From the IMG/VR virus record IMGVR_UViG_2890388907_000005, positions 16,217 through 80,216 of that record: DNA of 64,000 bases; one strand, 5' to 3'. The first letter of the stretch is position 1. Every line of letters begins with the position of its first letter. Positions 2,579 to 60,155 of the stretch are shown in pieces. The position numbers and the translations under genes were made by a program. The stretch is from a virus (Duplodnaviria; Caudoviricetes). Under the pieces are notes generated by a model that saw only the letters and a list, made by a program, of their open reading frames with translations, was not told where the DNA came from and ran no database searches.

Positions 2579-3685
2579 ATGGCTGAGAACAGCACGATCG
2601 AATGGACCGACGCGACGTGGAACCCCATCACCGGCTGCACGCTGGTGAGCGAGGGCTGCCGGCACTGCTATGCGGCAGAGCTGGCGACGACGCGCCTTCG
2701 GCACCACCCGAGCCGGGCCGGGCTGGCGCGGCGGAATGCGGCAGGCGAGGCGAAGTTCACCGGCGAGGTCCGGTTCAACGAGCAGTGGCTGGATCAGCCT
2801 CTGCGCTGGCGCCGGCCGCGGCGCGTTTTCGTCTGCGCGCACGGCGACCTCTTCCACGAGTCCGTGCCCGACGAATGGATCGACCGGGTTTTCGCGGTCA
2901 TGGCGCTTTGCCCGCAGCACACGTTTCAGGTGCTGACCAAGCGCCCGGAGAGGATGCGGGAGTATCTGTCATACTCCGCGCGATGGGCAACCGTCCTGCC
3001 GACGGAGCTTCTGGCGAAAGGAACCGAGGCGGCGCATCGTGATCACTGGCCGCTCCCAAACGTCTGGCTCGGCACGTCGATCGAGGATCAGGCCACAGCA
3101 GACGCGCGTATCCCGCACCTGCTGGCCACCCCGGCAGCGGTGCGGTTCCTGAGCGCGGAGCCTCTGCTCGGGCCTGTCGATTTGCGGACCTGGATCGGGT
3201 CGCGGCCTTATGTTGGCGCCTCCACCTTTGGCGCCGCAGACGGCTTCCGGCGGTGCGATCTTTCGGGAAATACCGGCCTACTTGACTGGGTCATCGTCGG
3301 CGGCGAGAGCGGCCGCCACGCGCGCCCGATGCATCCTGACTGGGCGCGGTCCCTGCGCGACCAGTGCGTCGCGGCGGGCGTCCCGTTCTTCTTCAAGCAG
3401 TGGGGCGAGTGGGGGCCGGGGTCTGTCATGACGTCGACCGGCGAACAGGTGTTTCGCACCTTCCCCGACTTCCAGACCTGGATCAACAAGGCGCCGACTT
3501 GGGTCAACGGCGGGGTCTGCCTTGATGCGGCTGGCCGTCACTGCACACGCGGGGCCGATTTCATGCGCGCGCGGGACGAAGGCACGTTCCCCGTTACCGT
3601 CCTTCACCGCATCGGCAAGGCCCGGGCCGGCCGCCACCTCGACAGCCGCCCTTGGGATCAGATGCCGGGGGTGGTCGGATGCTGA
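2579..3685 (+). CDS. Phage Gp37/Gp68 (DUF5131) family protein, radical-SAM-like
   Basis: IEWTDATWNPITGCTLVSEGCRHCYA; FLSAEPLLG; WVIVGGESG; FFFKQWGEW. Confidence 0.92.
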   Translation: MAENSTIEWTDATWNPITGCTLVSEGCRHCYAAELATTRLRHHPSRAGLARRNAAGEAKFTGEVRFNEQWLDQPLRWRRPRRVFVCAHGDLFHESVPDEWIDRVFAVMALCPQHTFQVLTKRPERMREYLSYSARWATVLPTELLAKGTEAAHRDHWPLPNVWLGTSIEDQATADARIPHLLATPAAVRFLSAEPLLGPVDLRTWIGSRPYVGASTFGAADGFRRCDLSGNTGLLDWVIVGGESGRHARPMHPDWARSLRDQCVAAGVPFFFKQWGEWGPGSVMTSTGEQVFRTFPDFQTWINKAPTWVNGGVCLDAAGRHCTRGADFMRARDEGTFPVTVLHRIGKARAGRHLDSRPWDQMPGVVGC

Positions 3686-11215: not shown

Positions 11216-14200
11216 CTAGTTGTAGATGGCGGGGGCGAGGCCTTCACGCAGGCGTCTATCCAGCTTCTGGTTCAGGCTGACGCCGCCCTCGTTCCGTTCG
11301 GAGGATCGCTGTCTCGCCTGCACCGACTGCCGGATCGTGTCGGAGGTGATCGGGTATTCGGGCCAGCGGGCATTGAAATCGCGGATCGCATCCAGAACCC
11401 CGTCCGGGATCGCGTCGCCCGCCCGGATCGCGTCGCCGGCGCGCCGGTGCAGCCGCTTCCTCTCCTCGATGACCTCGGCCTCCTTGTTCTTGAGACGCGA
11501 GTTGATGTCGTAGCGTTCGGCGATGCGCGCGGGGGTGAAGCCGTTGGCCTGCAGGAGCAAGCCCCAGGGGCTGACATCCTCGACGATCAGGTCGCCGTTC
11601 CGGGTGGTGACGCCTTCGGCGGCATAGCGCCCGGCCCTGATGACGTCGCGGGCGAATTTCGGAACCAGCGCCTCGATGCCCCGCGCATAGTCGCCATCGG
11701 CAACATTCTGGGCGCCGCGGCCCATGCTGAACAGGATCCCGACCGTTGGACCAAGGGCTTCGTTGACATAGTGCTGCACCATGTCCTGCCCCTCAAGATC
11801 GCGGTCCGGGGGGCGGAACCAGAGGTTCGGCATGCCGATCCGCTCGGACAGGGCGATCCCGGTGACCTGCCCGGGAACCCCGTTCAGTGCGGCCCCCATG
11901 GCGAAGTTCCATGCCGCCGCGCCGGGGGTGTCCTTCTCGGCGAGCAGGGCGTCCTGCAGCCATTCCTCCAGGTCATCGGAGTCGCCGGGGAAGAACAGCG
12001 CCAGCAGCCCCATGACCAGGCCATAGCCCCAGGTGCCTGTGATGCCGGCATGCGCCATCATCGACAGGGTGACGCCCACCAGCTGCACCCGGGCTTCCCG
12101 CCTCTCCTCGGCACTGGCTCCATGCAGCGATTGGTGGGCGTCGCGGAACAGCCGGTAGAGCGAGTTGACGGTGAACTGCCTGAACTGAAGGAACAGCTTC
12201 GGCCAATCCCCCTGCATCATCCTCGGACGATCGCTGTTCTGATAGCTGAAATGGATGCGCCAGGTCAGATCTGCGGCGCGGTCGATGGCGAGATCATGGG
12301 GAACACCCTCGCCACGCGCGAGCCGGTAGGCGGCGAGATAGGTGATCTCGCGGTTGAACCTCTCGGCATGATGGAAACCCCAGCCGATCCGGCGCATCCA
12401 TTTCTCACGCCAGGGATTGAACTCCACCCCCGATTCCGCGACCGCGGCGAGATCATGGGCCTGCGTCTTGTCGATGACGCCGCGCCGGTAGCCCTCCGCC
12501 ATCGCCGCCTTTTCCGCGTCGCCGATGTCGGCGTTCTCGACGCTCCATTGATCCTTCCAGGAGGCCCCACGGCCGCGCCCGAAGTCCTTCGCGGCTTGGC
12601 CAAGCGCACCGACGATGTCGCCCAGAGAGGTGCGCGCGAAGGCCGCCCGCATCATCGCGGGACCGATCACCGTGGTCTGCGTGAGGTTGACGATGGCCGC
12701 GGCCGGCGAGACCCCCAGATACCAGACGAAAGCCAGAGAGGATGCGGCAGCCGACCAGCCGGAGCCGGTCGGGTTCATCGTCCACTCCTTCCGCCTGTTC
12801 ATCTCGTTGACCAGCGCGACCATGCGATTGCGGTCCGCGGAGACCGCGGCTTCGTCGAAGGCATCCTCGACGGCATCCTCGAGGTCGATGCCATGCTTGA
12901 GGCGCGCCAGCTGGTGGGCGCCGTGGAACATGTGGTGAGAGAAGGCGCGCAGGGCGTCCCTGTTCCAGCCTTCGCGCCCCTTGCGGTGGATCTTGGAGGT
13001 GCGGATCGACTGGTCGGGCAGCGTTTCCAGCCAGCGTTGCCAGATCATGTCCATGACCTCGGCCGACACATCCGCCCCGGCCAGCATCGTTTCGATGTCG
13101 GCGACGAAGGTCGGATCGACCTGATCGCGCAGCCCCCCGCGCTTCGCCAGAAGGCCATGCTCCACCCGCCCGGGGTGGGAGGCCTCCATTTCCTTGACAT
13201 GGGCGGCCTGCTTCGCCTCGGTCTCGAAGCGCGAGAAGCTGATGACCTTGCCCTCGGTGTCCCGCACCGTCACGAAATAGTCGCCGAAGCGCGCCAGCGG
13301 GAAATACGGGCCCTTGAGCCGGTTGCTCTCGAACTGTCGGCGCAACTCCTTCATCCGTGCCCCGGAGCCCCAGCCGCCCCGCAGCTTCACCTTGTCCAGT
13401 CTCTCCTTCGCCTCGGCCTCGGCCGCGGCCCTCTCCTCGGCTTCAAGGCCCTCGTCGGCGATCCTGCGCATCTCGCGGCGATACTCCTTCTCCGCGCGCT
13501 TCATCGCAATCTTCGTCGCCTTCTCGATGTTCTCGACGATGGCGCGCTCGAAGTCGTTGCCCAGCCGGTCGTATTCCCGCATCACCTCGCCGTAGAGGGC
13601 ACGATGCGCCTCGGGCAGGGCCTGATACATCTCCGAGATGCGGGCGTAGGCGCGGCGGCGGCGGGCGGCATACTCGACCTGATCCTTGGCCCAGAGCGGG
13701 GCGTCATCGCCGTAGCGGCTGATCGCATCCCGCGCCCGGTCCAGCCACGCGCTGTTCCAGGTATCGGGTCCGGTGGGATCGACGCCGGCCTGGGTGGAGC
13801 GATGCATGAGGTCCATCAGCGCCGCATTCGCGGCGGGATCCTTGGCGGCGAGATCATACCATTTCTCCGCGACGCCGGCGGAGCGGGAATGCCACTGGTT
13901 GCGCAGCGCATCCATCTCGTCCTTCACCCGCAGATAGCGGCGCGCCCCGTTCAGATGCTTCCCCATCTCCGCGAACAGTGGTCGCCCCGGCACCAGCGCG
14001 AGAAGCGACAGGTTCTCCGCCGCCATCCGGTCGGTGATGATCGAGGAGACCCAGCGGCTCACCGACTGCCGGTCGATCCGGCCCAGCGTCCCGCGGAACC
14101 GGTCCCGCGACGGGATCAGCCCCGCCCGTAGCTCGCTGGATCCCGAAGCATCGCCCGTATGATTTCCGCCGCCTCGGCGTCGTCCTTCATCAAGGACTCG

Positions 14201-17200
14201 AACTCGGACGGCGTCAGCGGATTTATAATTCGCGAGGTATCGGGCCTCGGACTCGGTGAGGGAGTCGAAGCCGTGGCCTGTGGCGGCGATGAAGTCTGGT
14301 TCGAGGTCGCCATGCCGCTCGCGCAATCTGGAAAGGGTTTCCGGGGACAACGTCAATGTGGCGCTATACTGCTTCCCGGTCAAGGCGACAGCCCCGATGA
14401 CCCTTCCGCCGCCGGCTTCGATATGGGCGGCCAGCGTGGCGAAGGTGCCGCCTTGCGTCAGTGTATCGTCCAGCAGCAGGTAGTCCCGGCCAGGTTCCAC
14501 CGGGCCATTGAAGACGGGTTGCGCGAAGATGCGGTCCAGGCCGCCCAGCGCGGTGCGGTGCGGGGCATTGGTCTGGCCGATCCCCGTCGCGGGCTCAAGG
14601 CCCAGCCGGGCGGCCAGAACCTCGGCCGCCGCCCGCGGGATCTTGTTGCGCCCCGTCGCTTCTTCGGCCACGACCGGGACGATCAGGGGCTTTGCATCGC
14701 CCAGGGCGGCCCTGACCTGCGCGACCAGATCGTCGGTCACCTTGTCGACGGCCAGGCGCGTCGCGGCGGCAAGATCGCCAGCCTTGGCGGCGGCATAGTC
14801 TGGGTGCGAGGAGACCGAGGCGAGTTCGCCGGCGATGATGACCCGGGGGATGGACACCCGCCCGCGCATCTCGGCGCCCATGTCGGCACCCGCGGCGCGC
14901 CGGCTGCCGCCCGGCCCCTGCGGCCCGCGTCCCCCGATCTCGCCCCGCGCGATTTGCTCCATCGTCATCGCCGCGGAGACGAAGCCCCGGCCGCGCAGCA
15001 GGTTTGCCACGGCCTCGACAAAGGCGCGGATGCGCGCCAGCGCCCGGCCCGCCGGTCCGGTGGCCTCACGGCCCTGCGCCCAGAGCCGATAGAGCTCGGC
15101 AACAGCTTCCTCGGCCTGCTTGGCGTCGGTGAGATCGGGATAGCGGGTCCGCACCCAGTCCATGATCTCGGCATCGGCGCGGGCGGCACGTTCCAGCGCC
15201 GCCCATTCTTCCGGCCGGAACAGCCCGAGCGGACGGTTCCAGAGCCGTTCGCTGCGCAGCGCATGGATGATTTCGTGGCGCATGACCCCGCGGGCGTCAT
15301 CCCCGGCGGCAACGTCGATGCGCCCGCCGCCGGCGGTTCTGAAGGTGCCCTTCACCTCGACGCCCGACGCGCCCAGCAGCAGGCGAACCGCGCGGACGGT
15401 CACCTTCTGGTCGAGCCCGTGCGCTTTGAGATCGGCGTTGAGATCGCGGGTGATCCCGGCGAGATCGGCCTCGGCGAGTTCGTCGCCTCCCGGGGTGGCG
15501 ACGACGGGCCGGTCGCGCATCTCCGCGGCGGCTTCCGCCGCCTCATCGCCGCGCCTCATCTTCGACCCTTCGGAGATCTCCGGAGCCTCGAAGGCGCGTT
15601 CGTCATAGAGCGGGACGCCGCTTTCGCTCCTGACCTCCATGTAGGGGACGTCGCCTTGTTCGGTGGACACGAACCAGCCGGTGGCGAGCCAGCGATGGCC
15701 GGTGACCACCCGCTCCTCCCCATCGACATAGATCAGGGTGTCCAGTGGCGCGCCGGCGCGGAGCCAGCCCGGTGCCGGCACCGGGTTCGCCTCCATGTCG
15801 GCGAGGATGGCGTCGCGCTGCGCCTGCTTCTTCGCGAGGTCCCCGGCCTGCTGGAACGGTTCGTCCTGCGCGCGCTCCAGCCGCGCCAGCATCGCCCCGT
15901 TCTCGTCGATCAGCCTTTCGCTGTCGGAAACCGCGTCGGCGATCCGGCGGATGGCCGCCTCGATCGACGGCAGGGTCATCTTGCCGACCCGTCGCTCCGA
16001 CTTGCGGATGATGTCGATCGACACGTCTTCGACGCGATAGGAATAGCTCGGCTTCTCCAGGCGGATGGCGAAGCCGTTCACCTCGACTGGAACGATCTCC
16101 GTGGAGCCTTTGCCCATGCGGGTGGCGGCTTTCGCCAAGAATTCCGCGATGGCGACCTCCGCCGGAGCGCGTTCATCGAACCTCTTGCCGTCTACGGTGG
16201 CGGAGAAGGTGCCTGCCGCCCGGATCCCGGCGACATGGGCGGCATCGTTGCGCAGCGGCGGCAGCGTCTTTTCGAGCGCCTCGGTCTGGGCGGTGATCTG
16301 GCGGATGCGGCGGGTGGCATCGGCGATGCCGGCGACATGGATGCGTTCGCGCGCCTGCAGCCTCTCCACCGCCTTGTTGAGCTTGGAGACCAGCATGAGG
16401 CGGGGGTCACCGGCGGCTTCGGACAAGGTGTCGGAGAGCGAGCCACCATCCATTGCCTCGGCATCGTCGGTGGCGTCGCCCTCGATGACCCGCACCCCCT
16501 CCTTTGCCCTGAGAAAGGCCTTGATAAAGCGTTCCTTGATCGCCAGAACCTGCCAGCGCCGGCCATCAAGCCCCTCGGTCAGATAGCGGTATTCCTCCAC
16601 CGTGTTCCAGGTGTTGCCCTGCCGCTCGCCCCGGCCGTTGCGCTGTTCGAGATCGCCCGGCATCCATGGCGCATCGAGGTGGTGCATCGCCCGCAGGTAT
16701 TTCTGCATGTTGACGCCGACACCCAGGGTCTTGGTCTGGCCGATCACGACGCGGATCTTCAAGGCGTTCATCGCGTCGGCGATGGCCTTCTTCTCCTCGG
16801 CGCTGACCCCGCCGGCGACGATGGCGATTTCCTCGCGCCTAACTCCCTTGGCAACCAGTTTCGCGACAATGTCGTCGGCAAGATTGAACTTCCGCTTCTT
16901 CGTGCGGGTCTTGTTGCCGTCCGCATCGGTGCGCGTGGACACGGTTTCCGAGGAGTAGCCCTCGTCCATGAACAGCACCTGGGTCGCCATCGGCTGGTCC
17001 AGGTAGATCTGCGCGATCCTCCTGACCGCCCGGTTCGCTTTGGACAGCGGGTGGTCCTCGGCGTCGGGCTCCTGCAGGCGCGTATCCATCGAGGCGCGGT
17101 TGGGGACGTTGTTGAAGACGATGGGGGAGTCCGGCCCACCGCCGCGCATGATCTCCCGCCGCTGCTTCCCGTTCGCCTGCTTGAAGGCGCGGGCGTAATA

Positions 17201-20200
17201 GATCACCTCGTCGAGGATGCGACGCTGGTCCCCGCCCATCGGCCCGATGTCGTTGATGATCTTCTTGTAGGGGCGGCCCTGCGGCTTTTCGGTGCGGCCG
17301 TTTTCGAGGAAGTCGCGATCAGCGTCGGTCAGATCCTTGCTGCGCATCGTCTTGCCGTCCGCCGTGGCGCGCGGCTTGAACTCCGGCATGTCGGAGGCGA
17401 AGACGATGTCCATGAACTGGCCGGCGAGCTGGCGCAGTTCGCTGACGTTGATGAAGGCGGCCAGCCGTTCGACATTCTCGAACTCGCCGGTCGAGGTGAG
17501 TTCGACGTCGCTGATCGTGTCCGCGAACGCCTTGAAGAAGCCGTCCCAGGTATCGACCTTGGCCGCCCGCATCACGTCGTCCATGGCGTAGAACATCTGG
17601 TGGTAGATTTCCGCCAGGGTGTTCGTGATCGGGGTGCCGGTGAAGACGTGGACCCCGGTGCCATTGCGCTGCGATTTCACATAGGAGGTGAGGAAGCGCA
17701 GGGCCAACGACTTGTTGGAGGTGCCGAGGTTGAGCCCCTTGACCTGCATGCGCGTGGCCAGCGGCGGCTTCTTGAACTCGTGGGATTCGTCGACAAGGAT
17801 CATGTCGACGCCCAGTTTCTCGAAGCTGATGGCACCCTCGCGGCTCGCGCGCTGCGCCTGCTTCTCGATCTGGTTCAGCAGGTTCTTCCGGGCCTTGACC
17901 ATCTCCTTCGCGGTGACGCCCAGCCGCATCTTCTTGATCTTCTCGGGATCGTCCATGTCCTCGACGCTGAGGCTGAACCCGTCATCGGCCGCGGCGGCGA
18001 TGGCTTCACGCTCGTAGGCCGCGATTTCCTCCTCGGCCATCACCATCAGCGTGTCGTGGGTCAGCGCCAGCCGATCCAGCAGCGAGTGGGGGATCACGAT
18101 CAGATCCCAGTCGTCGGTTGCGATGCGCGCGAGTTCGGTGTCGATCGTCGCGGGGGAGAGGTTGTTGATGTAGAGGATCTTCGCGCCGGGATAGGTGTCC
18201 TGCGCTTCCGCGGCGACGGCGGCGGAGTTGGCGTTGTGAGCGATCAGCAGCGGCTTCCTCGCCAGCCCGAACCGCCGGCTTTCAACCGCGATCCCGGTCA
18301 TCGTGATCGTCTTGCCGGTGCCCACCTCATGGCCATAGATGCCGCGCTGGTTCAGGATGCCCCGCCAGATCGCGTTGGCCTGATGCTGGCGCAGATTGAA
18401 CGGCTCATCCCCTCGCGTCAGGGCCATGCCCGGGAATTCGAGGAAGCTGCCGTCGATCTGCGGCGTCGCCGTGTTGTTCATCGCCTCGTTGTAGGCGCGC
18501 TCCGCCTCGACGCGGCGCTCGGGCTCGGACCAGAGCCATGCCCCGAATTTCTGACGGAGATCCGCGGCCTTCTGGTTCGCGGTCTCCGTTGCCCTGGTAT
18601 CCTTGTAGGTGCCGTCCTGGTCCTCATAGGTGACGGTGATGGTCTGGGTGTTCAGCGTCGCCTCGAAGAACCGGGCCAGCGAAAGCCCGGTGCCTCGCCG
18701 ACCCGGGAGAGGCGCGCCGGTGATGTCGGAGGCGCCGGGCATATGTGCGACGCGGTCGGAGAATTCGACGCGCCATCCGGTCATCGCCCGGGTCAGCTTC
18801 ACATCGTTCTCGTCGGGGTTGGCCAGCCCGAGGGTTTCGATGATGAAGGCGCGGTTGATCCCGGCATCGACCCAGTCGGCGCCGAACCGCGCCTCGATCT
18901 GGAAATAGGGCACATCCGGCGGCTGCACCGCTTCGAGCGCGGCGACAGAAGCTGCCATGTCCTCGCCGCCGTCCAGCGCCTCGCGCGCCGCCGCCAGCTT
19001 CACCCTGACGTTGCCGGCGAGATAGCGGTCGCTGGTCTCGTAGCCGCCGCCCGGCGTCCGGTAGATCGCCTTGCTGTCGAGCAGATCGGCGATGACCGTC
19101 TCCGCCGGCTGCTTCGCCAGCTCCGCGACGCGCTCGATGTCGAGAATGGCACTCTCGTTCCGCGCGATCACGAAGGCTTCGCGGATCGACGGGTTGTCCA
19201 GCTTCTGTGCAGCCCGGACCACCGCCTTGGTCATGATCGCGGCGGGCGTTCCATCGCCGTTTTCGAGTGCTGCGACGAGGCCTGCGTTCGGATCGCGCAG
19301 CTTCTTCAGGACGGATAGGGCGAAGCTGTCGCCGATCGGACCATGCGCCTTGACGAAGCCGTCATAGGCCAGCTTCAGCGTCTTGCGTTTCGCCTCCGCA
19401 TCGGCGGCGCCGGCCCGGTCGGCTTCCATCACGGCGTCGGCGGCGCGCCGCACCTCGATCAGTCGCCCGATCTCGGCCATCCGCTTCGCGGTCTCCGTCG
19501 CGCTCTTGGTGGCGATCTTGGCGACATCCTCGAGCCGGGCCATGTTGTCGCCCTGGACCTGATAGAGATTGCCGTCATCGCCGCGGGTGATGGAGAGGAT
19601 GCGATCCCGGGTGGTCGTGGCGACGAAGCGGGGTTCCTTTCCGCGCCGCGCCGGCTGATAGGCATCGGCCGGCAGCGCCGATGCGATGGCCTTGAGACGC
19701 GCGGCGAGATCCGCCGGCCGGTTCACGATCATGCCGGCCTTGCCATAGGTGGTGCCGTGGCCGGTGGTCAGTTCGCCCAGCACATGCGAGGGGTTGTCCA
19801 GGAAATACTGGTTGACGTGGATCTCCTGCCCCGCGGGCGAGGTCCACGGCACCGATTGGACCCACCTCTCGCCTTCGGCGCTCGCCTTCGGTTCCGCGCG
19901 CTTGCGCAGGATGATGATGTCGGTGACGACGCGGGTGCCCGCATATTTCTCGAACGCGCCGCTCGGCAGCCGGTAGGCGGCGACCAGCTCCGCATTCTTG
20001 GCGAGGTGGTTGCGGATCACCCGGTTCTTCTGGCCGTCCATGGAGAAGGCCGAGGTGATGCCGACGACAAGCCCGCCCGCGCGCACCTGATCCAGCGCCT
20101 TGAGGAAGAAATAGTCGTGCAGGCTCGGGGTCAGCCGGTCGTAGCGGCGATCCGGCACCTTGATGTTGGCGAAGGGCCAGTTGCCGATGACCAGATCGTA

Positions 20201-23200
20201 GAAGCCATCGGCGACGCGGCTCTTTTCATAGCCCATGACGCGGATGTTGGCCCGCGGATAGAGCAGCTTCGCGATGCCGCCGGTGGTCTTCTCCAACTCG
20301 ATCCCGGTGAGTTGCGAGTTCTGTTCCAGATCCCGCGGCATCATGCCGAAGAAGTTGCCGACACCCATGGCGGGTTCGAGGACGCGGCCGCCCTTGAAGC
20401 CCATCGCGCGGACCGCATCCCAGATCGCCTCGACGGTCGGCGGGTCGGTGTAGTGGGCGTTGATGATCGACTCTTGCGCGCTGGCCCAGGCATCCTTGCC
20501 CAGATGCTCGCGCAGCCAGGCGTCTTCCTCCTTCCAGCCCTCCTTGGGGCGCGGATAGGCCCATGAGCCTTGAAACAGTTCCTGGCCGAAGCTGCCCCAG
20601 CCGATGAAGCCGGCCATGGCATCCATTTCCTCGGGGCTCGGCTCGCGGCCGGCATCGGAGACCGCCTCGAATACCTCCATCGCCCGGCGGTTCTTGGCGA
20701 ACCGCGCTTTCGGGCCGCCCGCGAACAGCGAATCCGGGTCGGTGATGTGATAGTTCAGGCGCCCGGGGGCAGAGGGCTGGTCGCTTCCGGGTCGAACATC
20801 GCCCAGTCCTTCACCGCTTCCTGCCGCGCGTCGGACGGGTTCATCCCGCTTTTCAGGTAGTCCCGCTCCGCGTCCAGCATCCTTTCGACGAGAACGTGCG
20901 CGAGGGCGGTCACCGCGCCCCACTCCTTCATCGCCTGATGGAGCCCCGGGTTCTGCGCCTCCCAGGTCTCGATCATCCACTTCTCCAGTGGCGTCCCCGG
21001 CCCGATGTTGTGCGGATGGTCCATCAGGGTCCGGCTCTCCACCTTCGCCCACTTCGCCAGTGCCTGCGCCGCTGCCTTCTCCATCGGGGGTCGTTCCAGC
21101 TTGAGGTTGCGTCGCAACGGTATCAGGTTCCGCCGGCTCGGGCGAGACGGGGAATTCCCCGGCCGGCGTGTCCAGCGCCTCAAGGTTCTGGATCGCGGCG
21201 CGCACCGCCGCGGTGTCATCCATGCCGTCGATGGAGATCTCGTTGTCCTCCATCATGTCCCGCGCACCATTATACCAGGACCGCAGGTAGGGGCGCAGCT
21301 TGGTGGGGGTGGTGTCGAGATCGGCGGCGACGGCCCGGGCGAAGTCGGCGAAGCGCCGGGCGCCCGCCTCGATGTGGAACACGGCGAGTTCGGCACCGAT
21401 GGCGAGGATTTCGGGGTCGATGCCCGAATTGATCTGGCTGCCCAGCTTGGCCTTCAGCCGCTCGCGCAACTCGGCGGCGCGATCCGCGGATACCAGCTTG
21501 TTCGAGGCGCCATAGGCCGGCGCCGGTTCGGCTGCGGCCGGCGCGGCCGGCGCGGGCGCGGGCTGATCGGGCGCGGCGGCAGCCGGCACACCGCGCTGCG
21601 CGGCACCCTCGGCATAGCCTGCGCGCCAGTCATCGGCGATGGGATCGCCTTCCAGCCATGCCGGCGGCTCGCGCATCGCACCGGCACGGCCAGCTTTCCG
21701 GCCGGCCTCGATCGCGTCGCGGCGCTTCTGTTCACGCCGGTCATCCAGCACCGGCGGCGCGGCCGGCGCGGGCGCGGGTGCGGCAGGCTTCGGACGGGCC
21801 GGCGCGGGCGCGGGCCGGGCAGGTTTGCCGGCCTCCGCAGCGATGCGGTCCTCCTCGACATAGGCGGCTTGCAACACGGCGTCGGCATGCTTGCGGGCGA
21901 AGATGAACCCGCCTTCCTTCTCGTCCCATTTCAGGCTGACGCCCGGCACCTGCGGCGGCCGATCCTTCGGGAGACCGCGCAGCACCGCGGCCTTGGCCCG
22001 CACGTTCTCCACCTCGACACCCTCATAGGGATAGGTCGGGGCTTCGCTCGTGGCCGCGGCCTTGCTCGGGCCGCCGCCCGCCAGCCAGGTCTTGAAGCCG
22101 GGCACATCCATGGCGGTGATGCCGCCCAGCCGCCGGCGCCCCTTCCCATCGGAGAACCCGCCCAGGTAGGCGATCTCCGCTTCGGACGCGGAGGCGAAGC
22201 CCAGCATCACCTTGTGTTCGTCGAAGGCGCCGGTTTCGGCATCCTTCTGGTCGATGATCCAGACCTTATCGCTGGCCTCGTCCGGTCCCATGTAGAAGTC
22301 GACGTGGTCGCCATCGGCGCCAGTCGTGCCGCGGATGTAGCCGTAGTCCGCAGGCATGGTGACCTCCCATGCCGCACCATCCGCCCCGACACCGCTGCGC
22401 GTCCCGCCCTTCGGGTTTTCGATGGAGAGGTCGAACCCTTTCCAGCGGGCATGCCCCTTGCGGTAGTTGCCGGCCTCCTTCTGCGCCTCGGTCGGGGCTG
22501 GATCCGCGGCCTTTGCGGCCTCGGCGACCGCGGACTCACCGCCCCCGGTCAGTGGACCTGCAGGCTCGCCGGTGCCAGCTGCGTCAACCAGACCATCTTG
22601 AGGATCGGCGCCACCGGGTCGGTTCCCTGGATCGTCCGCTCCGATCGCAGCGCCTTGCGCGCCAGCCGCGCTTCCTCCGGGGTTATCATCCCCGCGGCGA
22701 GCAGCGCCTTGATCGACTGCCGCGCCGTCATCCACATTGGCAGATCGAGCATTTCCTTCCCCCATATCGACCGGTGCGACCCGATCCATTTCCCGCATCG
22801 CCCCGCGCGTCGCAGACGCGATTGCATCCCGGTCCAGCCCCTCTGTGTCGATCCGCCTGTCCTGATCGGATGCACCGCGGCCGGCCCGCACGATGACGCG
22901 GCCCGGGCGGATCAGAACCTCCCGGCCATCCAACAGCATGTCGTCGGAACTCTTGCCCCCCTCGGCGATGGCGAGGAAGCGACCCCATTCCTTCCGGCGC
23001 TTCTCCCGCGACGCCGTCTCGGCCTCGGAAACCTCGCGCCCCCCCAGCATGTCGGGCTGCATCCGCTGCTCGGGCGGAGTCGTGATCGGGGCGACCGGGT
23101 TGCGGGCCGCCTTGGCCGGTGCCGCGGGCGGCGCGGGCATGTCCTCCGGAGGCGGCACCTTCGCCGCGAGCCGGGCGCGCAGATCCAGCATGGTCTTCGA

Positions 23201-25093
23201 CGGCTTCTTCGCCCGGCGGATCGCTTCATCGACGGTGGCGAGGCGCGAAGCGGCCTGCTCGGGCGACAGCGCGTCGATGTCGGCGGCTGGATCGCGCGGC
23301 GTCTCCGCTCGCCCCTTCGGTGCGGCCTGCTGCGCCAAAGCGCCCGGCGCCGGCACCTGCGGCGCAGGGCCAGGCGCGTCGGCGCCCGGTGCGGGCTTCG
23401 CCTTCTTCGCCGCCTCCGCGGCGGCATCGGCACGGCGCGCCGCATTCAGGGAGATGTCGAAGGCCTCCGGGGTCAGATCGACCTCGCGCCCCTCGATCCT
23501 GACGATGGCGCTGCCGCCGTCCTCACGCTGGAAGACGCCGTCGACGATCGAGCCTTTCTCGTCCATCAGCCGCACCGCCGCCCCGGGCTTCATGTCGGGG
23601 AAGGCCGGAACCGGTTCCACCTCGGGAACGGGGGTCAGATCGGGGGCAACGGTTGCGGCGCGGCCGATCGGGCCGGCCGGAGCGGCATCGGGCGGCAGCG
23701 GCGCCGCACCGATGTCGAAGACGTCGGACCCCGCTTCCTGGGGAGGGGCGGAAGCGGGGTCCATCCCGCCGGCGGTCCCGGCGCCTGCAGGATTCGGTGA
23801 GGGGCGCTCGCGCAGCGTCGGATCGCTGACCGGGCCAGCGCCGAAAATCGTGCCGCCGCGGTTCGGCGCGGGAAGGGCGAGCCGCGCCGGGGGCGCCTCG
23901 GCATCCCGCTGGCGCCCCTGAGCCGCCCCGACAACCGCGCCTGGCCCGGCACCGCCCATGGCGCCGAGGGCGAAGTCGGCGAAGGTGCCTTCGGTCAGAG
24001 AGGCGTCGTCTCCGGTGACGGTCTGCGCGCCGGCGCGCGCCGCCATCGACTCCGCCACCTCCTGGGCACCCTCCTCGATCCCCGAAAGACCGCCGATTCC
24101 CAAGGCGCGGGCGGCAACCCCGCGCGATGCCAGCGCGGAGACGGGCTTGTTCAGGATGCGCTCGGTGACGGCGCCGCCGATGGCGGCCGGAACCGCCTGA
24201 GCCACCCCGCCGGCGGCTTCGGCCATGGTGGTGACCCGCGAGATCGCATCTTCGACGGAGGCGCCCGACGCGATGGCGTCGCGGAAGACCGCGGAGCCTT
24301 GTTCCAGTGCGGCGCGGCCCTCGGAGGTGCCCGCAAGCGCCTCGACATGCTCGCGGCCGGCATCCATGCCTTCCCCGGCGCCCATGGCGGCGCCCGCGGC
24401 CATAGCCGCAGCCGGGCTCTTGGTGGCCAGCGCCACCGCAACCATGGGCAGGAAGGAACCGGTGGCCTGGGCGGCATGCAGGGCGACCCCGCGCAGCGAG
24501 GGGTCTTCGCCCAGCGTCCAGGTGGAGGGCTTGGTAATGTCGCCGTCGATGCCGGTCCCGGCCAGCGCGGCCTTACCCCGATCCGAGACACCTTCGGCCA
24601 AGGCGTCGCCGCCGCTCTGCACCCATTCCCCGGCCCGCTTCGCCAGCTCACGCGCCTTGGTCTGATGCGGCAGCAGCTGGCCGCCCGATCCGACGAGTTC
24701 GGCCCCCAGCCCGAGTCCCTTGATCGCCGCGCCGGCGCCCTGCAGGGCGCCCCCGGCGACCTGACGGCCCAGATCCCCGACAAGGCTCCCCTCGTCGGTC
24801 GCCGGAGGCGCCTCGGATGCGGCGCGCGGGTAGAGTTCGTCGGCGAGATCATAGGCCCGGTTCAGCACCGGCGCCGGAAGGACATCCTCCAGCGTCTCGC
24901 CCGCATCCAGCCGCCCCCGCAGCGCCGCGGCTGCGCGTTCAGCATCGACGCCGGCCTCCTCGATCGCCATGAGGACGTTGGCGGGGATTTGCGCCGACGA
25001 GGCCAAGGCCTCCACGCGCTGCCGCCTGATCGCCGGGTCGGAGGCTTCAGGAATAGAACCCGCGGGGCCGAAGCCGAACGGAGTGGTGGCCAT
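11216..25093 (-). CDS. Giant DarB-like polyvalent protein (4625 aa): pyrophosphatase-like, N6-adenine methyltransferase, SF2/SNF2 helicase, zincin-like metallopeptidase, phosphoribosyltransferase and PLxRFG domains
   Basis: GNYRKGH...DYGYIRGTTGADGDHVD; VLEPAMGVGNF and IGNWPF; HEVGTGKT and VDESH; RHEIIH; LLLDDTLTQGGT; YFPLARFG. Confidence 0.92.
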   Translation of the reverse strand: MATTPFGFGPAGSIPEASDPAIRRQRVEALASSAQIPANVLMAIEEAGVDAERAAAALRGRLDAGETLEDVLPAPVLNRAYDLADELYPRAASEAPPATDEGSLVGDLGRQVAGGALQGAGAAIKGLGLGAELVGSGGQLLPHQTKARELAKRAGEWVQSGGDALAEGVSDRGKAALAGTGIDGDITKPSTWTLGEDPSLRGVALHAAQATGSFLPMVAVALATKSPAAAMAAGAAMGAGEGMDAGREHVEALAGTSEGRAALEQGSAVFRDAIASGASVEDAISRVTTMAEAAGGVAQAVPAAIGGAVTERILNKPVSALASRGVAARALGIGGLSGIEEGAQEVAESMAARAGAQTVTGDDASLTEGTFADFALGAMGGAGPGAVVGAAQGRQRDAEAPPARLALPAPNRGGTIFGAGPVSDPTLRERPSPNPAGAGTAGGMDPASAPPQEAGSDVFDIGAAPLPPDAAPAGPIGRAATVAPDLTPVPEVEPVPAFPDMKPGAAVRLMDEKGSIVDGVFQREDGGSAIVRIEGREVDLTPEAFDISLNAARRADAAAEAAKKAKPAPGADAPGPAPQVPAPGALAQQAAPKGRAETPRDPAADIDALSPEQAASRLATVDEAIRRAKKPSKTMLDLRARLAAKVPPPEDMPAPPAAPAKAARNPVAPITTPPEQRMQPDMLGGREVSEAETASREKRRKEWGRFLAIAEGGKSSDDMLLDGREVLIRPGRVIVRAGRGASDQDRRIDTEGLDRDAIASATRGAMREMDRVAPVDMGEGNARSANVDDGAAVDQGAARRGDDNPGGSAAGAQGAAIGADDPGNRPGGADPQDGLVDAAGTGEPAGPLTGGGESAVAEAAKAADPAPTEAQKEAGNYRKGHARWKGFDLSIENPKGGTRSGVGADGAAWEVTMPADYGYIRGTTGADGDHVDFYMGPDEASDKVWIIDQKDAETGAFDEHKVMLGFASASEAEIAYLGGFSDGKGRRRLGGITAMDVPGFKTWLAGGGPSKAAATSEAPTYPYEGVEVENVRAKAAVLRGLPKDRPPQVPGVSLKWDEKEGGFIFARKHADAVLQAAYVEEDRIAAEAGKPARPAPAPARPKPAAPAPAPAAPPVLDDRREQKRRDAIEAGRKAGRAGAMREPPAWLEGDPIADDWRAGYAEGAAQRGVPAAAAPDQPAPAPAAPAAAEPAPAYGASNKLVSADRAAELRERLKAKLGSQINSGIDPEILAIGAELAVFHIEAGARRFADFARAVAADLDTTPTKLRPYLRSWYNGARDMMEDNEISIDGMDDTAAVRAAIQNLEALDTPAGEFPVSPEPAEPDTVATQPQAGTTPDGEGSGAGTGEVGEGGEPDPDGPSAQHRAGDATGEVDDRDLGGAEPGAPSGDEGVGRGDRPRARSRRKDAGRGAGLPEKRDEPVRRAAGSGEGLGDVRPGSDQPSAPGRLNYHITDPDSLFAGGPKARFAKNRRAMEVFEAVSDAGREPSPEEMDAMAGFIGWGSFGQELFQGSWAYPRPKEGWKEEDAWLREHLGKDAWASAQESIINAHYTDPPTVEAIWDAVRAMGFKGGRVLEPAMGVGNFFGMMPRDLEQNSQLTGIELEKTTGGIAKLLYPRANIRVMGYEKSRVADGFYDLVIGNWPFANIKVPDRRYDRLTPSLHDYFFLKALDQVRAGGLVVGITSAFSMDGQKNRVIRNHLAKNAELVAAYRLPSGAFEKYAGTRVVTDIIILRKRAEPKASAEGERWVQSVPWTSPAGQEIHVNQYFLDNPSHVLGELTTGHGTTYGKAGMIVNRPADLAARLKAIASALPADAYQPARRGKEPRFVATTTRDRILSITRGDDGNLYQVQGDNMARLEDVAKIATKSATETAKRMAEIGRLIEVRRAADAVMEADRAGAADAEAKRKTLKLAYDGFVKAHGPIGDSFALSVLKKLRDPNAGLVAALENGDGTPAAIMTKAVVRAAQKLDNPSIREAFVIARNESAILDIERVAELAKQPAETVIADLLDSKAIYRTPGGGYETSDRYLAGNVRVKLAAAREALDGGEDMAASVAALEAVQPPDVPYFQIEARFGADWVDAGINRAFIIETLGLANPDENDVKLTRAMTGWRVEFSDRVAHMPGASDITGAPLPGRRGTGLSLARFFEATLNTQTITVTYEDQDGTYKDTRATETANQKAADLRQKFGAWLWSEPERRVEAERAYNEAMNNTATPQIDGSFLEFPGMALTRGDEPFNLRQHQANAIWRGILNQRGIYGHEVGTGKTITMTGIAVESRRFGLARKPLLIAHNANSAAVAAEAQDTYPGAKILYINNLSPATIDTELARIATDDWDLIVIPHSLLDRLALTHDTLMVMAEEEIAAYEREAIAAAADDGFSLSVEDMDDPEKIKKMRLGVTAKEMVKARKNLLNQIEKQAQRASREGAISFEKLGVDMILVDESHEFKKPPLATRMQVKGLNLGTSNKSLALRFLTSYVKSQRNGTGVHVFTGTPITNTLAEIYHQMFYAMDDVMRAAKVDTWDGFFKAFADTISDVELTSTGEFENVERLAAFINVSELRQLAGQFMDIVFASDMPEFKPRATADGKTMRSKDLTDADRDFLENGRTEKPQGRPYKKIINDIGPMGGDQRRILDEVIYYARAFKQANGKQRREIMRGGGPDSPIVFNNVPNRASMDTRLQEPDAEDHPLSKANRAVRRIAQIYLDQPMATQVLFMDEGYSSETVSTRTDADGNKTRTKKRKFNLADDIVAKLVAKGVRREEIAIVAGGVSAEEKKAIADAMNALKIRVVIGQTKTLGVGVNMQKYLRAMHHLDAPWMPGDLEQRNGRGERQGNTWNTVEEYRYLTEGLDGRRWQVLAIKERFIKAFLRAKEGVRVIEGDATDDAEAMDGGSLSDTLSEAAGDPRLMLVSKLNKAVERLQARERIHVAGIADATRRIRQITAQTEALEKTLPPLRNDAAHVAGIRAAGTFSATVDGKRFDERAPAEVAIAEFLAKAATRMGKGSTEIVPVEVNGFAIRLEKPSYSYRVEDVSIDIIRKSERRVGKMTLPSIEAAIRRIADAVSDSERLIDENGAMLARLERAQDEPFQQAGDLAKKQAQRDAILADMEANPVPAPGWLRAGAPLDTLIYVDGEERVVTGHRWLATGWFVSTEQGDVPYMEVRSESGVPLYDERAFEAPEISEGSKMRRGDEAAEAAAEMRDRPVVATPGGDELAEADLAGITRDLNADLKAHGLDQKVTVRAVRLLLGASGVEVKGTFRTAGGGRIDVAAGDDARGVMRHEIIHALRSERLWNRPLGLFRPEEWAALERAARADAEIMDWVRTRYPDLTDAKQAEEAVAELYRLWAQGREATGPAGRALARIRAFVEAVANLLRGRGFVSAAMTMEQIARGEIGGRGPQGPGGSRRAAGADMGAEMRGRVSIPRVIIAGELASVSSHPDYAAAKAGDLAAATRLAVDKVTDDLVAQVRAALGDAKPLIVPVVAEEATGRNKIPRAAAEVLAARLGLEPATGIGQTNAPHRTALGGLDRIFAQPVFNGPVEPGRDYLLLDDTLTQGGTFATLAAHIEAGGGRVIGAVALTGKQYSATLTLSPETLSRLRERHGDLEPDFIAATGHGFDSLTESEARYLANYKSADAVRVRVLDEGRRRGGGNHTGDASGSSELRAGLIPSRDRFRGTLGRIDRQSVSRWVSSIITDRMAAENLSLLALVPGRPLFAEMGKHLNGARRYLRVKDEMDALRNQWHSRSAGVAEKWYDLAAKDPAANAALMDLMHRSTQAGVDPTGPDTWNSAWLDRARDAISRYGDDAPLWAKDQVEYAARRRRAYARISEMYQALPEAHRALYGEVMREYDRLGNDFERAIVENIEKATKIAMKRAEKEYRREMRRIADEGLEAEERAAAEAEAKERLDKVKLRGGWGSGARMKELRRQFESNRLKGPYFPLARFGDYFVTVRDTEGKVISFSRFETEAKQAAHVKEMEASHPGRVEHGLLAKRGGLRDQVDPTFVADIETMLAGADVSAEVMDMIWQRWLETLPDQSIRTSKIHRKGREGWNRDALRAFSHHMFHGAHQLARLKHGIDLEDAVEDAFDEAAVSADRNRMVALVNEMNRRKEWTMNPTGSGWSAAASSLAFVWYLGVSPAAAIVNLTQTTVIGPAMMRAAFARTSLGDIVGALGQAAKDFGRGRGASWKDQWSVENADIGDAEKAAMAEGYRRGVIDKTQAHDLAAVAESGVEFNPWREKWMRRIGWGFHHAERFNREITYLAAYRLARGEGVPHDLAIDRAADLTWRIHFSYQNSDRPRMMQGDWPKLFLQFRQFTVNSLYRLFRDAHQSLHGASAEERREARVQLVGVTLSMMAHAGITGTWGYGLVMGLLALFFPGDSDDLEEWLQDALLAEKDTPGAAAWNFAMGAALNGVPGQVTGIALSERIGMPNLWFRPPDRDLEGQDMVQHYVNEALGPTVGILFSMGRGAQNVADGDYARGIEALVPKFARDVIRAGRYAAEGVTTRNGDLIVEDVSPWGLLLQANGFTPARIAERYDINSRLKNKEAEVIEERKRLHRRAGDAIRAGDAIPDGVLDAIRDFNARWPEYPITSDTIRQSVQARQRSSERNEGGVSLNQKLDRRLREGLAPAIYN
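20755..21084 (-). CDS. Putative nested gene (+1 frame, 109 aa) inside the giant ORF, just upstream of the methyltransferase domain
   Basis: MEKAAAQALAKW...WMIETWEAQNPGLHQAMKEWG...ARQEAVKDW has globular helical composition, while the main frame here is G/D/R/P-rich. Confidence 0.6.
   Translation of the reverse strand: MEKAAAQALAKWAKVESRTLMDHPHNIGPGTPLEKWMIETWEAQNPGLHQAMKEWGAVTALAHVLVERMLDAERDYLKSGMNPSDARQEAVKDWAMFDPEATSPLPPGA
22549..22752 (-). CDS. Putative nested gene (+1 frame, 67 aa) inside the giant ORF, just upstream of the pyrophosphatase-like domain
   Basis: GGGGGAAGGAA-ATG; MLDLPMWMTARQSIKALLAAGMITPEEARLARKAL; main frame is a low-complexity linker here. Confidence 0.55.
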   Translation of the reverse strand: MLDLPMWMTARQSIKALLAAGMITPEEARLARKALRSERTIQGTDPVAPILKMVWLTQLAPASLQVH

Positions 25094-55445: not shown

Positions 55446-56089
55446 TGATGCACGATCCCGACGACAACGACCTCGATGATTTCCTGGTGGGCCTCAAGCT
55501 CGTGATGGAGCGGAGAGGGCTGAAGCCCGCTCCGCTGGCGATAGAGGCGGGCCTCGGGGTGACCGCGATCCGCGATCTTTACCGGCGGCGGTCCAGCCCC
55601 AAGGTCAGCACGGCCGAGGCGATCGCGCGTCAACTCGACATGGGGATCGACGAAATCATCGCCGCCGGCGCGCGGCGCGAGATGCCCAGCCGCCCGACAA
55701 CGCCGGTGGTGGGCCGGATCGCCGAAGGAGGGTGCGTCAAGGGGTTCGGCCACCAGATCGGACGCATCATGGAGCCCCAGCTGCTGCGGGGCGCTGATAT
55801 TGCTGCGCTTTTGGTGGCTGCGGACATCGGCCCCCTGCATCCCCATGGGTCGATTTTCGTCTTCGAGGTAGCGGCGGCGCCTGTCTCGGCCTACCCGGGC
55901 CGCGCCAGCGTCGTCGTCACCGGGGCGGGCCAAGTCCTGCTGGGGGCACCGCGGCGCGGCTCGAAGGCTGGACTATGGAATATCACCCCTCTGGTCAGCG
56001 GCGTGGATGCAGTCTGGGATGAGCGGATCAGGGCGGTGCACCCGATCCGGCTGACCCTGTTCCCGGACCTCGCGGAGATGATGCAATGA
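55445..56089 (+). CDS. CI-like repressor (HTH plus degenerate S24-like domain)
   Basis: LAIEAGLGVTAIRDL...SPKVSTAEAIARQL; PVVGRIAEG. Confidence 0.8.
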   Translation: MMHDPDDNDLDDFLVGLKLVMERRGLKPAPLAIEAGLGVTAIRDLYRRRSSPKVSTAEAIARQLDMGIDEIIAAGARREMPSRPTTPVVGRIAEGGCVKGFGHQIGRIMEPQLLRGADIAALLVAADIGPLHPHGSIFVFEVAAAPVSAYPGRASVVVTGAGQVLLGAPRRGSKAGLWNITPLVSGVDAVWDERIRAVHPIRLTLFPDLAEMMQ

Positions 56090-56238
56090 TCTATGCGGTT
56101 GCCTTGGCCACTCTGGTCGCCGGAGGCTATTTCGCCGGGCGCGCCGAGGCGGAGAAGCGGGCCTCGTTCACGAAGCTGGCGGGCGGTCTTCTGATCGTCG
56201 GGCTGATCTGCGCGGGAATCGCGGCGCCTGGGGTGTGA
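56086..56238 (+). CDS. 50-aa two-TM membrane protein coupled to the repressor (absent from ORF track)
   Basis: MIYAVALATLVAGGYFAG...LAGGLLIVGLICAGIAAPGV; ATGA overlap; GGAG upstream. Confidence 0.65.
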   Translation: MIYAVALATLVAGGYFAGRAEAEKRASFTKLAGGLLIVGLICAGIAAPGV

Positions 56239-56246
56239 TCCCCGAC

Positions 56247-56299
56247 TTGTGCAGTTGCACAACTTTTTGCTTGAAATGGGGCTTTTGCCCCAATAAGGT
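56247..56299 (+). promoter_or_regulatory. Early rightward promoter with operators
   Basis: TTGAAA-17-TAAGGT (56271-56299) with TGGGGC-TTTT-GCCCCA in the spacer; TTGTGC-AGTT-GCACAA at 56247-56262. Confidence 0.8.
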
Positions 56300-56326
56300 C
56301 TGACGCATCTCATCCAGAGGTGCGTC

Positions 56327-56449
56327 ATGCTTTCCCGTATCGCTGCCACCGCGCTTTGCGCGGCGCTTCTTCTCGCCCTCCATGATGCCCCGGCGCGCGT
56401 CGCCTCGGCCGCTCATGACGCCGCATCTGCGGGGTGCGGGGCATGCTGA
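56327..56449 (+). CDS. 40-aa peptide with signal-peptide-like N-terminus
   Basis: GAGGTG RBS; MLSRIAATALCAALLLAL. Confidence 0.5.
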   Translation: MLSRIAATALCAALLLALHDAPARVASAAHDAASAGCGAC

Positions 56450-56670
56450 CCGAAACCGTCAGCCCGCTTGTTTCACTGTCCGAGCGGGCCAACTCCCCTG
56501 CGGAAGCCAAAGGCCCGCAGGGGCTTTCTATTGGCCGCAACGCCGACGCCTTCGCCCGCATGAACCGCGCGCGACTGGCGGCCCGGTGGCGCGCCCTCGC
56601 CATCGTCTGGGCCGGGGGCGCGGCGATCTGCCTCACCGTCGCCATCAACGTCGCCGCACGGGTGTTCTGA
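56443..56670 (+). CDS. Hypothetical protein with C-terminal TM helix
   Basis: Overlaps upstream stop; hydrophobic C-terminus. Confidence 0.55.
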   Translation: MLTETVSPLVSLSERANSPAEAKGPQGLSIGRNADAFARMNRARLAARWRALAIVWAGGAAICLTVAINVAARVF

Positions 56671-56735
56671 TGGCGCGCTGGCTGATCCCCCTCGCGATTG
56701 CCGGCGTCACGATCTGGCTGGTCTGGCTGGCATGA
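56670..56735 (+). CDS. 21-aa hydrophobic peptide
   Basis: MARWLIPLAIAGVTIWLVWLA; TGATG upstream and ATGA downstream coupling. Confidence 0.45.
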   Translation: MARWLIPLAIAGVTIWLVWLA

Positions 56736-57115
56736 TCCGGCAGCCGACGCCCATGGCGGTGCTTTATGCGTGGCACCGCGCCGCGCTGGCCGGGGAGGCG
56801 CCGCCCATCCATGAGGGGATGCCCGAAGCGGGCTGGTATCGCTGCAGGCTGACCAAGGGCGGGCCGTGGGTGCCGGTGGAGATCCGCGTCGAACGGGTGA
56901 TCTGCCCGGACAGCGGCGAACTTCTCGAACCGGAGCGGCTTGTCGCGATCTGCGATGGGGACAGGCGCGATCCGGCCCGGCTCTGGACATACCTGACCCC
57001 GATCAGTCGCGCCGAACATGCGGATCTGCTGCGCCGGCGCGACCTGATCCCTTCCATGGCGGCGACCCTCGCCCCCGTCTCAACCTCCACCCTCCACACG
57101 ATGAGGCCACGATGA
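56732..57115 (+). CDS. Hypothetical phage protein
   Basis: PEAGWYRCRLTKGGPWVPVEI; ATGA coupling. Confidence 0.75.
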   Translation: MIRQPTPMAVLYAWHRAALAGEAPPIHEGMPEAGWYRCRLTKGGPWVPVEIRVERVICPDSGELLEPERLVAICDGDRRDPARLWTYLTPISRAEHADLLRRRDLIPSMAATLAPVSTSTLHTMRPR

Positions 57116-59090: not shown

Positions 59091-59183
59091 CCCCTGCCGC
59101 CTCCGCAGGGGCTGCCCGCCGGTGTTTGCCACCACTCCGCCGGCGGGCGCCTTCCTTCCACCACCGAACCAAAAGGAGTTTCC

Positions 59184-59761: not shown

Positions 59762-59826
59762 CGCATCGCCAGAGCCGCCCCGCGCGGGCGGCTCCCCCAT
59801 GCGCCAACCGACATTGGAGACTCGAC

Positions 59827-60153: not shown

Positions 60154-60155
60154 CC

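Follow-up and report, generated by a model that had tools for sequence, protein, structure and literature searches.

A probable small gene in the +1 frame of a phage polyvalent-protein spacer, and signs that such nesting recurs

Out-of-frame embedded genes are textbook rarities in phages. In phage lambda the small gene Rz1, with its own start, lies wholly inside the larger gene Rz on the same strand and in the +1 frame; both are thought to be translated, and the Rz1 product, a lipoprotein, carries a signal sequence and a lipobox cysteine. Where viral genes overlap, as in phiX174 and in overprinting at large, one DNA stretch read in different frames gives two proteins, and in classical overprinting the new gene is born within an older functional gene. 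Embedded +1 genes of phages are already known; the variant described here is nested in the spacers of polyvalent proteins. The locus described lies in a 64,000-nucleotide (nt) stretch of a Caudoviricetes virus (IMG/VR record IMGVR_UViG_2890388907_000005, positions 16,217 to 80,216; the whole stretch is called the window). In it a 67-codon open reading frame (ORF), here gene A, with product P0004, lies inside the ORF of a giant polyvalent protein, the host ORF (Table 1). Gene A is quite probably a true dual-coding gene, across which the host frame would read through as an unconserved Gly/Ala/Asp/Pro spacer, and both frames are presumably translated.

Two published lines of work lie close to this arrangement. 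An engineered design termed 'overlapping, alternate-frame insertion' (OAFI) has been proposed for locking genes together, and the paper describing it names phiX174 (10.1101/2024.11.07.622342). In the text of the study that described polyvalent proteins (Iyer et al. 2017, PMC5512222) the words 'overlapping' and 'frameshift' do not appear, and the one passage to mention a 'reading frame' deals with small ORFs that neighbour each other. The open-access literature searched yielded no paper on nested genes within polyvalent proteins.

Gene A is complete from start to stop, lies on the same strand as the host ORF with an offset of +1, and spans host residues 781-849, so placed that its stop falls 20 host codons 5' of the InPase domain as delimited by Pfam. 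The host-frame peptide over it consists to 90% of G/A/D/E/P/Q/T/V/R/S. Within the window's host frame no ATG, GTG or TTG occurs from the nested stop to the first conserved InPase residues; with no start codon of its own there, the InPase depends on read-through of the spacer. On the 5' side of the nested ATG the +1 frame is open for a further 41 codons and is there Arg/Gly/Trp-rich and unconserved. An earlier, sequence-only reading of the window had singled out a 67-codon ORF at 22549-22752 preceded by a purine-rich run, and the ORF, the run and the quoted peptide are all borne out by sequence and translation. Its placing of the ORF just upstream of a pyrophosphatase-like domain agrees with the Pfam boundary, and its remark that the ORF shares a relative frame with a second one at 20755 holds exactly (22752-21219 = 1533 = 3x511). 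That reading also called the main frame shadow-like, which stands as regards its unconserved, G/A/D/P-rich character and fails insofar as it would make the frame non-coding, for the InPase needs the read-through. Scans of 20500..23300 gave no promoters and no terminators, and Rfam gave no match at E<=1 on either strand over 20000..23500, which gives no sign of a self-splicing intron or other known RNA element in the slot.

The window has a GC content of 68%, and long spurious ORFs are common in it, e.g. antisense ORFs of 1,719 and 931 amino acids (aa). Over the whole host ORF, GC at codon positions 1, 2 and 3 is 0.70, 0.50 and 0.84. Third-position GC (GC3) of the host frame falls below 0.68 in just three stretches, 22858..22483, 21193..20713 and 14308..14083, the first of which covers gene A. 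At fine scale host GC3 is 0.43-0.60 from about 22790 to 22550 and returns to 0.87 directly after the nested stop; over the same interval GC at host position 1, which is nested position 3, climbs to 0.83-0.93. The switch in codon bias starts at the nested ATG and not upstream of it. The host ORF contains 56 alternative-frame ORFs of 60 aa or more, and only two of them, gene A and the 20755 ORF, have a GC3 of their own more than 0.1 above host GC3. Over gene A a codon-usage log-odds score trained on the remainder of the host ORF is +0.40 nats per codon for the +1 frame and -0.25 for the host frame; in two flanking control segments the host frame reaches +0.70 and +0.45. Elsewhere in the host ORF, A/P-rich linkers keep a host GC3 of 0.79-0.84, and their +1 translations are junk-like. 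The frame-specific analysis proposed beforehand by the sequence-only reading does, therefore, reveal a codon-bias switch over gene A.

Relatives of the predicted peptide, whose absence the same reading had counted among the signs that would refute the gene, were found by phmmer, by profile searches and by six-frame scans of loci. Against 1.84 billion representative proteins, phmmer with the 67-aa peptide gave six matches at E<=1e-3, five of which are proteins of 60-70 aa that align end to end (E 2.2e-8 to 6.7e-4). The sixth, a 1,770-aa repeat protein, was discarded as spurious. A profile search of a 5.8-billion-cluster collection gave eight small proteins with E 1.2e-20 to 1.9e-12. DNA context came from 80 IMG/VR loci fetched by way of the InPase domain together with the Pseudomonas-phage locus L009; profile search of the six-frame ORFs of these 81 loci placed a member of the family (family A) in five of them, L011, L018, L035, L034 and L016, and the members in three of the five lie outside the profile (E 1.5e-21, 5.9e-17 and 1.3e-6). 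InPase-independent scans seeded with family A added two more loci, L092 (IMG/VR) and L094 (a metagenome contig). In all, gene A's peptide has 12 small-protein relatives in metagenomes and seven relatives in other phage or metagenome DNA loci.

Further scans of viral, genome and metagenome contigs for related loci gave none with query A2 or P0004, and likewise none with query A8; query A9 recovered only copies identical to L016. The window's own genome holds gene A itself alone, plus one match at E 0.17. Sixty relatives' genomes searched with P0002 gave six weak matches (E 7.4e-4 to 0.01), three of them with internal stops, which were set aside as noise; two genomes among the 60, G058 and G059, have no match to the family A profile. 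Longer proteins carrying family A in frame were not found, which is weak evidence.

The layout is shared by the eight DNA loci that carry family A (the window, L011, L016, L018, L034, L035, L092 and L094). In each of them the small gene is +1 to a host frame that stays open across it, and the flanking modules lie in one common frame; in the six InPase-bearing loci that open frame is the InPase frame. Two compensating sequencing errors were ruled out as a source of the arrangement, which is common to eight independent assemblies. The start codon is ATG in seven loci and GTG in one (L034), placed 6-9 nt 3' of an AGGAGG-like Shine-Dalgarno (SD) site. Predicted anti-SD duplexes reach -8.4 to -10.5 kcal/mol in 7 of the 8 loci, each in the top 0-3.1% of the ATG/GTG triplets of its locus; the window's computed value, -8.4 kcal/mol, is in the top 3.1% of 389 such triplets. 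All seven loci with a complete gene (all but L094) end it in CA(C/T) TGA, and across this nested stop the host frame reads (C/T)TG (Leu) followed by an A-initial codon.

Conservation follows the nested frame. When the three translations of the same DNA are compared by BLASTP over 28 locus pairs, the mean score is 36.5 bits for the nested frame, as against 11.4 for the host frame and 9.6 for the third; the host-frame peptide is therefore no more conserved than a non-coding frame. Together with the homolog family, this nested-frame similarity argues for purifying selection on the embedded frame. When synonymous codons were re-drawn from local usage with the nested protein held fixed, the probability of a stop-free host frame in six loci came to 0.56 (window), 0.065, 0.018, 0.072, 0.34 and 0.125, and all six host frames are open. 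The direction of this excess is clear and suggests that the host frame is kept open by selection.

Several observations weigh against this interpretation. Family A is small, with 18 proteins and 8 DNA loci, all from uncultured sequence, and identity to the window's member is just 22-42%. None of the small-protein relatives sits on a contig longer than 2,349 bp, which leaves their genomic context beyond view; on contigs this short gene callers are free to call a nested ORF. No free-standing family A gene was found, and the family A profile matched nothing in 400 further genomes of the class. The search of phage genomes by tblastn that had been suggested at the outset covered 50,697 phage records, with P0002, P0005 and the member from L018 as queries, and returned no family A member. 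The SD site of L035 is weak (-3.8 kcal/mol, 28th percentile), and in the window the SD core AAGGA adjoins the ATG, the duplex energy being owed to a G-run. The window's open host frame is unremarkable when taken alone, and the product of the six stop-free probabilities (2e-6) overstates the case, the loci being related by descent. Conservation peaks at nested codon position 2, equivalent to host position 3 (0.555); this value comes from position-wise identities in a nested-frame alignment that is biased to that frame, a bias from which the BLASTP comparison is free. No known family, fold or partner lends support to any function: P0004 scores 12.9 bits (E 0.098) with Pfam SHOCT (PF09851), below the cut-off of 27 bits, as do the only other matches to it (3 of 18 members in all, best E 0.016); CtsR_C matches are sub-threshold and confined to 2 of 18 members; PHROGs gave nothing with the 67-aa and 108-aa forms; and the best hit of a sequence profile search of the PDB had E 0.95.

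That gene A is open by chance, as alternative frames can be at 68% GC, with its +1 codon bias mimicked by a G/A/D-rich host linker, is scarcely credible. Long shadow ORFs do abound, as the two antisense examples show; a Gly/Ala/Asp-rich linker can be reasoned to lift host GC1 and with it +1 GC3, and other A/P-rich host linkers do have +1 GC3 near or above host GC3. A linker leaves unexplained the collapse of host GC3 over gene A, however, since the A/P-rich ones hold theirs; nor would chance supply homologs of the +1 peptide at E 2e-8 among 1.84 billion proteins and 1e-20 by profile, or a start, SD site and stop conserved in eight loci, and the three-frame BLASTP comparison disfavours taking the homolog matches for echoes of the host frame. 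A nested gene once functional and now silent in this prophage, with only the host frame mattering, would suit the window's member in that it has the shortest N-terminus among the DNA loci and the least canonical SD geometry of the strong sites. Its ORF is nevertheless intact from the homologous Met to the invariant Gln58 and terminal His67, and codon bias still tracks the nested frame, which counts against a relic because such bias would be expected to decay once selection stops; this explanation is accordingly regarded as very improbable.

The two remaining alternatives concern how the frames are used. A +1 slip near 22760, aided by the internal SD site as in prfB, would yield a truncated N-terminal protein that ends at TGA 22549 with the family A C-terminus. 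Frameshifting in both prfB and dnaX is known to be stimulated by internal SD sites, those 41 codons before the ATG keep the +1 frame open, and the invariant His-TGA ending is otherwise unexplained. Slippage is nonetheless unlikely, given a start codon 6-9 nt past an SD site in 8/8 loci and N-termini that are homologous from the Met onward, with unconserved Arg/Gly/Trp-rich +1 sequence 5' of the ATG and a codon-bias switch that begins at it; the interval from the window's SD site to the ATG, moreover, shows neither a host-frame stop nor any evident slippery run of the prfB kind. Alternatively the locus could comprise separate genes, i.e. an upstream gene, the small gene and an InPase gene, with the host frame open as a by-product of GC-rich third positions. 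In the window such openness would arise by chance 56% of the time, the lower-GC relatives L020, L024, L026 and L068 split the protein just 5' of the InPase, and the host ORF of L018 has just 506 codons. This is still highly unlikely: the window's host frame runs without a stop for 4,625 codons and its InPase has no start codon after the nested stop, the flanking modules share a frame in 8/8 loci, host frames are open in loci where the chance is 0.018-0.125, and equivalent ORFs in three cultured phages are annotated as single coding sequences (CDSs) of about 4,900-4,985 codons.

If gene A is dual-coding as preferred here, ribosomes on the giant ORF would read 22768..22520 in frame 0, producing the spacer between the N-terminal region and the InPase, and other ribosomes would initiate at the internal SD site and ATG 22752 in the +1 frame, releasing a separate 67-aa protein that ends in His before TGA 22549. 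Selection would act on amino-acid sequence in the nested gene and on openness alone in the host frame. As nested position 3 is host position 1, GC-rich nested third positions would leave host codons seldom T-initial, and T-poor codon starts would mean no stops and a hydrophilic spacer made mostly of Gly/Ala/Val/Asp/Glu/Pro/Arg/Gln/Leu/His. Dodging the few host stops still possible would cost the nested gene synonymous choices alone. The arrangement could thus be cheap because the GC-rich nested third positions are host first positions, and this overlap fits both the constant +1 nesting (family A 8/8, and 14/14 in the sibling family B below) and the unconserved host peptide. Of the two partners the small gene is presumably the older and the read-through spacer derived, judging from the normal codon bias of the former and the TnpV-like resemblance of the sibling family.

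The product is probably a small, helical protein. Across the 18 family A proteins there is an invariant Gln (Gln58 in the window) and a Trp-rich C-terminal segment, and the last residue is His in 17 of 18 (His67). The weak SHOCT matches fall on a central motif, 'L..L...G.IT.EE....K.L', at window residues 11-28. Pfam gave nothing usable with the 67-aa and 108-aa forms, and P0004 contains no Cys. It is possible, if doubtful, that this small protein is made late in the producing cell beside the polyvalent protein and acts on or with it, e.g. in folding, packaging or restraint, by way of a SHOCT-like hairpin and Trp-rich helix.

The sequence-only reading had further inferred that modules of the polyvalent protein carry embedded partner genes; for gene A and the pyrophosphatase-like module such a partnership is not supported. 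Among the six InPase loci the nested stop lies anywhere from about 30 to about 1,400 nt away from the InPase, L092 has gene A with no InPase within the 2,145 host codons of the locus, and the gene is patchy, occurring in 5 of 75 distinct InPase loci; nothing here therefore links gene A to that module in particular. Strict association with the conserved FPD.KPG...LTPE.FD domain was also rejected, as 6 of 9 InPase loci having that domain are without gene A, and the link of gene A to the N-terminal region appears loose at most. The orthologue in L019 aligns with the window protein over residues 18-1076 at 38% identity. The alignment is tight to '...DRVAP' and resumes with '...P.P T.AQKEA.NY' at the approach to the InPase; between these points L019 has an in-frame domain, and the window has gene A and the G/A/D-rich host peptide. 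This small L019 domain, WVIRNRETGETVMETFDRKKVDALN..., occupies host residues ~850-950 (locus ~2700..3000), which is gene A's slot, and alternative cassettes therefore occupy one inter-module slot. By these comparisons gene A behaves as an optional cassette.

At the same junction the four relatives of lower GC (0.40-0.52), L020, L024, L026 and L068, open a separate ORF with the InPase module at ~2870..2990; the upstream gene ends there in a different frame and the polyvalent protein is split.

The ORF at 20755..21219 represents a second nested family, family B. Comparison of the two families by hhalign gives a probability of 0.3%, and family B is therefore unrelated to family A. Its likeness is to Pfam TnpV (PF14198), with 25.4 bits (E 1.4e-5) for L034:3905-4219 and 15.2 bits for L025, both under the cut-off of 27; family A has no Pfam TnpV match, and tblastn of the TnpV-like L034 member against plasmids gave none. 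A family B profile finds 10 distinct ORFs in the IMG/VR and Pseudomonas-phage loci, five of them outside the profile, one of these five on a contig of 48% GC, and all 10 lie in the +1 frame inside a long open host frame. With the window's own copy added to these 10 there are 11 loci, and in 10 of them the family B gene ends directly 5' of the methylase module, at its conserved N-terminus; the eleventh is truncated by the locus end. Family B loci comprise L009, L010, L025, L034, L038, L058, L063, L071, L084, L086, L097 and L098, plus the window. Family B is also present, unannotated, in three cultured phages, where frames derived from match coordinates put it +1 inside the one giant CDS of each: Pseudomonas phage vB_PaeM_USP_25 (and USP_18), Erwinia phage PEp14 and Microcystis phage Mwe-JY07, and it was the depositors who annotated these CDSs, of the length given above, as single. 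Every member examined at the DNA level is nested in +1 in both families; family B uses all three stop codons. The recurrence of small +1 genes embedded in polyvalent proteins, foreseen from the window's sequence, is thus seen in 8/8 family A loci, in 10/10 family B ORFs and in the three cultured phages.

A crude scan of long host ORFs in loci with GC of at least 0.58, which flagged alternative frames with GC3 at least 0.18 above host GC3, marked 47 of 506 +1 ORFs vs 7 of 445 +2 ORFs. Some of the 47 are junk-like. The scan shows at least three further recurring groups of protein-like +1 ORFs with inverted GC3 in polyvalent ORFs of IMG/VR contigs (Table 1), with no above-threshold Pfam match among those examined.

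In the window itself the third and last dip of host GC3 (0.47), at 14083..14308 on the minus strand, coincides with a +1 ORF at 14116..14352. The tail of this ORF is protein-like (...MKDDAEAAEIIRAMLRDPASYGRG, then stop) and the host frame there is Gly/Arg-rich; it may be a third, shorter nested gene.

Table 1. Coordinates of gene A, its host ORF and related features (window positions unless a locus is named)
Feature	Position	Strand	Remarks
Nested gene A (candidate)	22549..22752	minus	ATG 22752..22750, 67 codons, TGA 22551..22549; product P0004; +1 to host ORF
Shine-Dalgarno-like run GGGGGAAGGAA	22753..22763	minus	immediately 5' of nested ATG 22752
Host ORF, polyvalent protein, 4,625 aa	11216..25093	minus	InPase, N6-methylase/helicase region, LPD39
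Host-frame spacer over gene A, ~residues 776-858	22520..22768	minus	G/A/D/P-rich, unconserved
InPase domain, host residues 869-1004	22082..22489	minus	PF18823, E 1.1e-52; module just downstream of gene A
Conserved host-frame domain of N-terminal region, FPD.KPG...LTPE.FD	23378..23617	minus	upstream of gene A in 6/8 loci
Sibling nested ORF, family B, TnpV-like	20755..21219	minus	+1; directly 5' of methylase module; start codon uncertain
Further +1 group 1	L012 5606..6013, L015 5528..5929, L022 5459..5863, L027 5474..5842		crude GC3 scan
Further +1 group 2	L019 5183..5635, L035 4001..4468, L047 4109..4456		crude GC3 scan
Further +1 group 3	L012 2276..2590, L015 2123..2410, L028 1589..1795, L044 4061..4255, L051 4133..4402		crude GC3 scan

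The giant ORF itself carries Pfam signatures of InPase, LPD39 and helicase and is stop-free throughout; its neighbours are genes for portal, major head, internal virion and virion structural proteins. Its setting among virion genes, together with these domains, therefore marks it as a polyvalent virion protein of a prophage. Beyond the prophage the flank (56000..63900) matches replicons of Paracoccus, Shinella and Sinorhizobium at 74-76% over ~400 nt, in a peptidylprolyl isomerase; among plasmid and chromid DNA it is Paracoccus that matches best (75-76% over 404 nt), and a tyrosine recombinase of Roseicitreum matches at 69%. These flank matches suggest an environmental alphaproteobacterium as the bacterial host.

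Taken together, two unrelated small-gene families and further candidates lie in the +1 frame of inter-module spacers, both in three cultured phages and on phage contigs of 48-70% GC, which suggests that phages place small genes within the spacers of their giant multi-enzyme proteins. Such genes cannot be reported by standard gene callers, which forbid same-strand nesting and so miss the whole nested class. Were the nested genes translated, the proteomes of these phages would be under-counted and the "disordered linkers" of polyvalent proteins would be in part shadows of real genes. Their small products would be candidate factors for handling or restraining proteins whose delivery into the next host is presumed (Iyer et al. 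2017, PMC5512222). Translation would also supply a natural precedent for engineered alternate-frame insertion and a concrete model for gene fusion that passes through an intervening gene. A broader proposal, held at somewhat less than even confidence, is that giant polyvalent proteins were stitched together across pre-existing small genes, so that their spacers are often out-of-frame independent genes, all functional and some tied to a module, like the TnpV-like gene with its methylase module, with the polyprotein and its helper or immunity proteins inherited and expressed as one unit; gene A would be one such cassette.

Among described systems, the host ORF is a member of the polyvalent proteins of Iyer et al. 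2017 (PMC5512222), joining InPase, LPD39 and methylase/helicase in one polypeptide within a virion module; it differs from those described there in its nested out-of-frame spacer genes. Family A resembles SHOCT in its central motif, with the weak matches noted above, and departs from it in scores far below the cut-off and in an extra conserved Trp-rich C-terminal segment ending in His.

Gene A is like Rz1 in being small, with its own start, +1 and on the same strand inside a larger phage gene. Rz1-type o-spanins have the lipobox Cys that P0004 lacks, however, and P0004 is therefore not a lipoprotein of the Rz1 kind. The larger partner differs as well, being a 4,625-aa polyvalent virion protein and not a membrane spanin, and the overlapped segment is an unconserved spacer, not a functional domain. 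With the engineered OAFI design, so far as the available portion of its description goes, gene A shares the same layout; that portion presents a laboratory design and names no natural polyvalent-protein counterpart, whereas the layout here is natural and conserved across diverged phages. As in overprinting, two frames of one DNA stretch are open and one has the codon usage of the genome. Unlike classical overprinting, it is the small gene that has the normal codon bias, and its sibling family resembles the free-standing TnpV, at a sub-threshold level; for these two reasons the read-through spacer, and not the small gene, looks like the derived partner.

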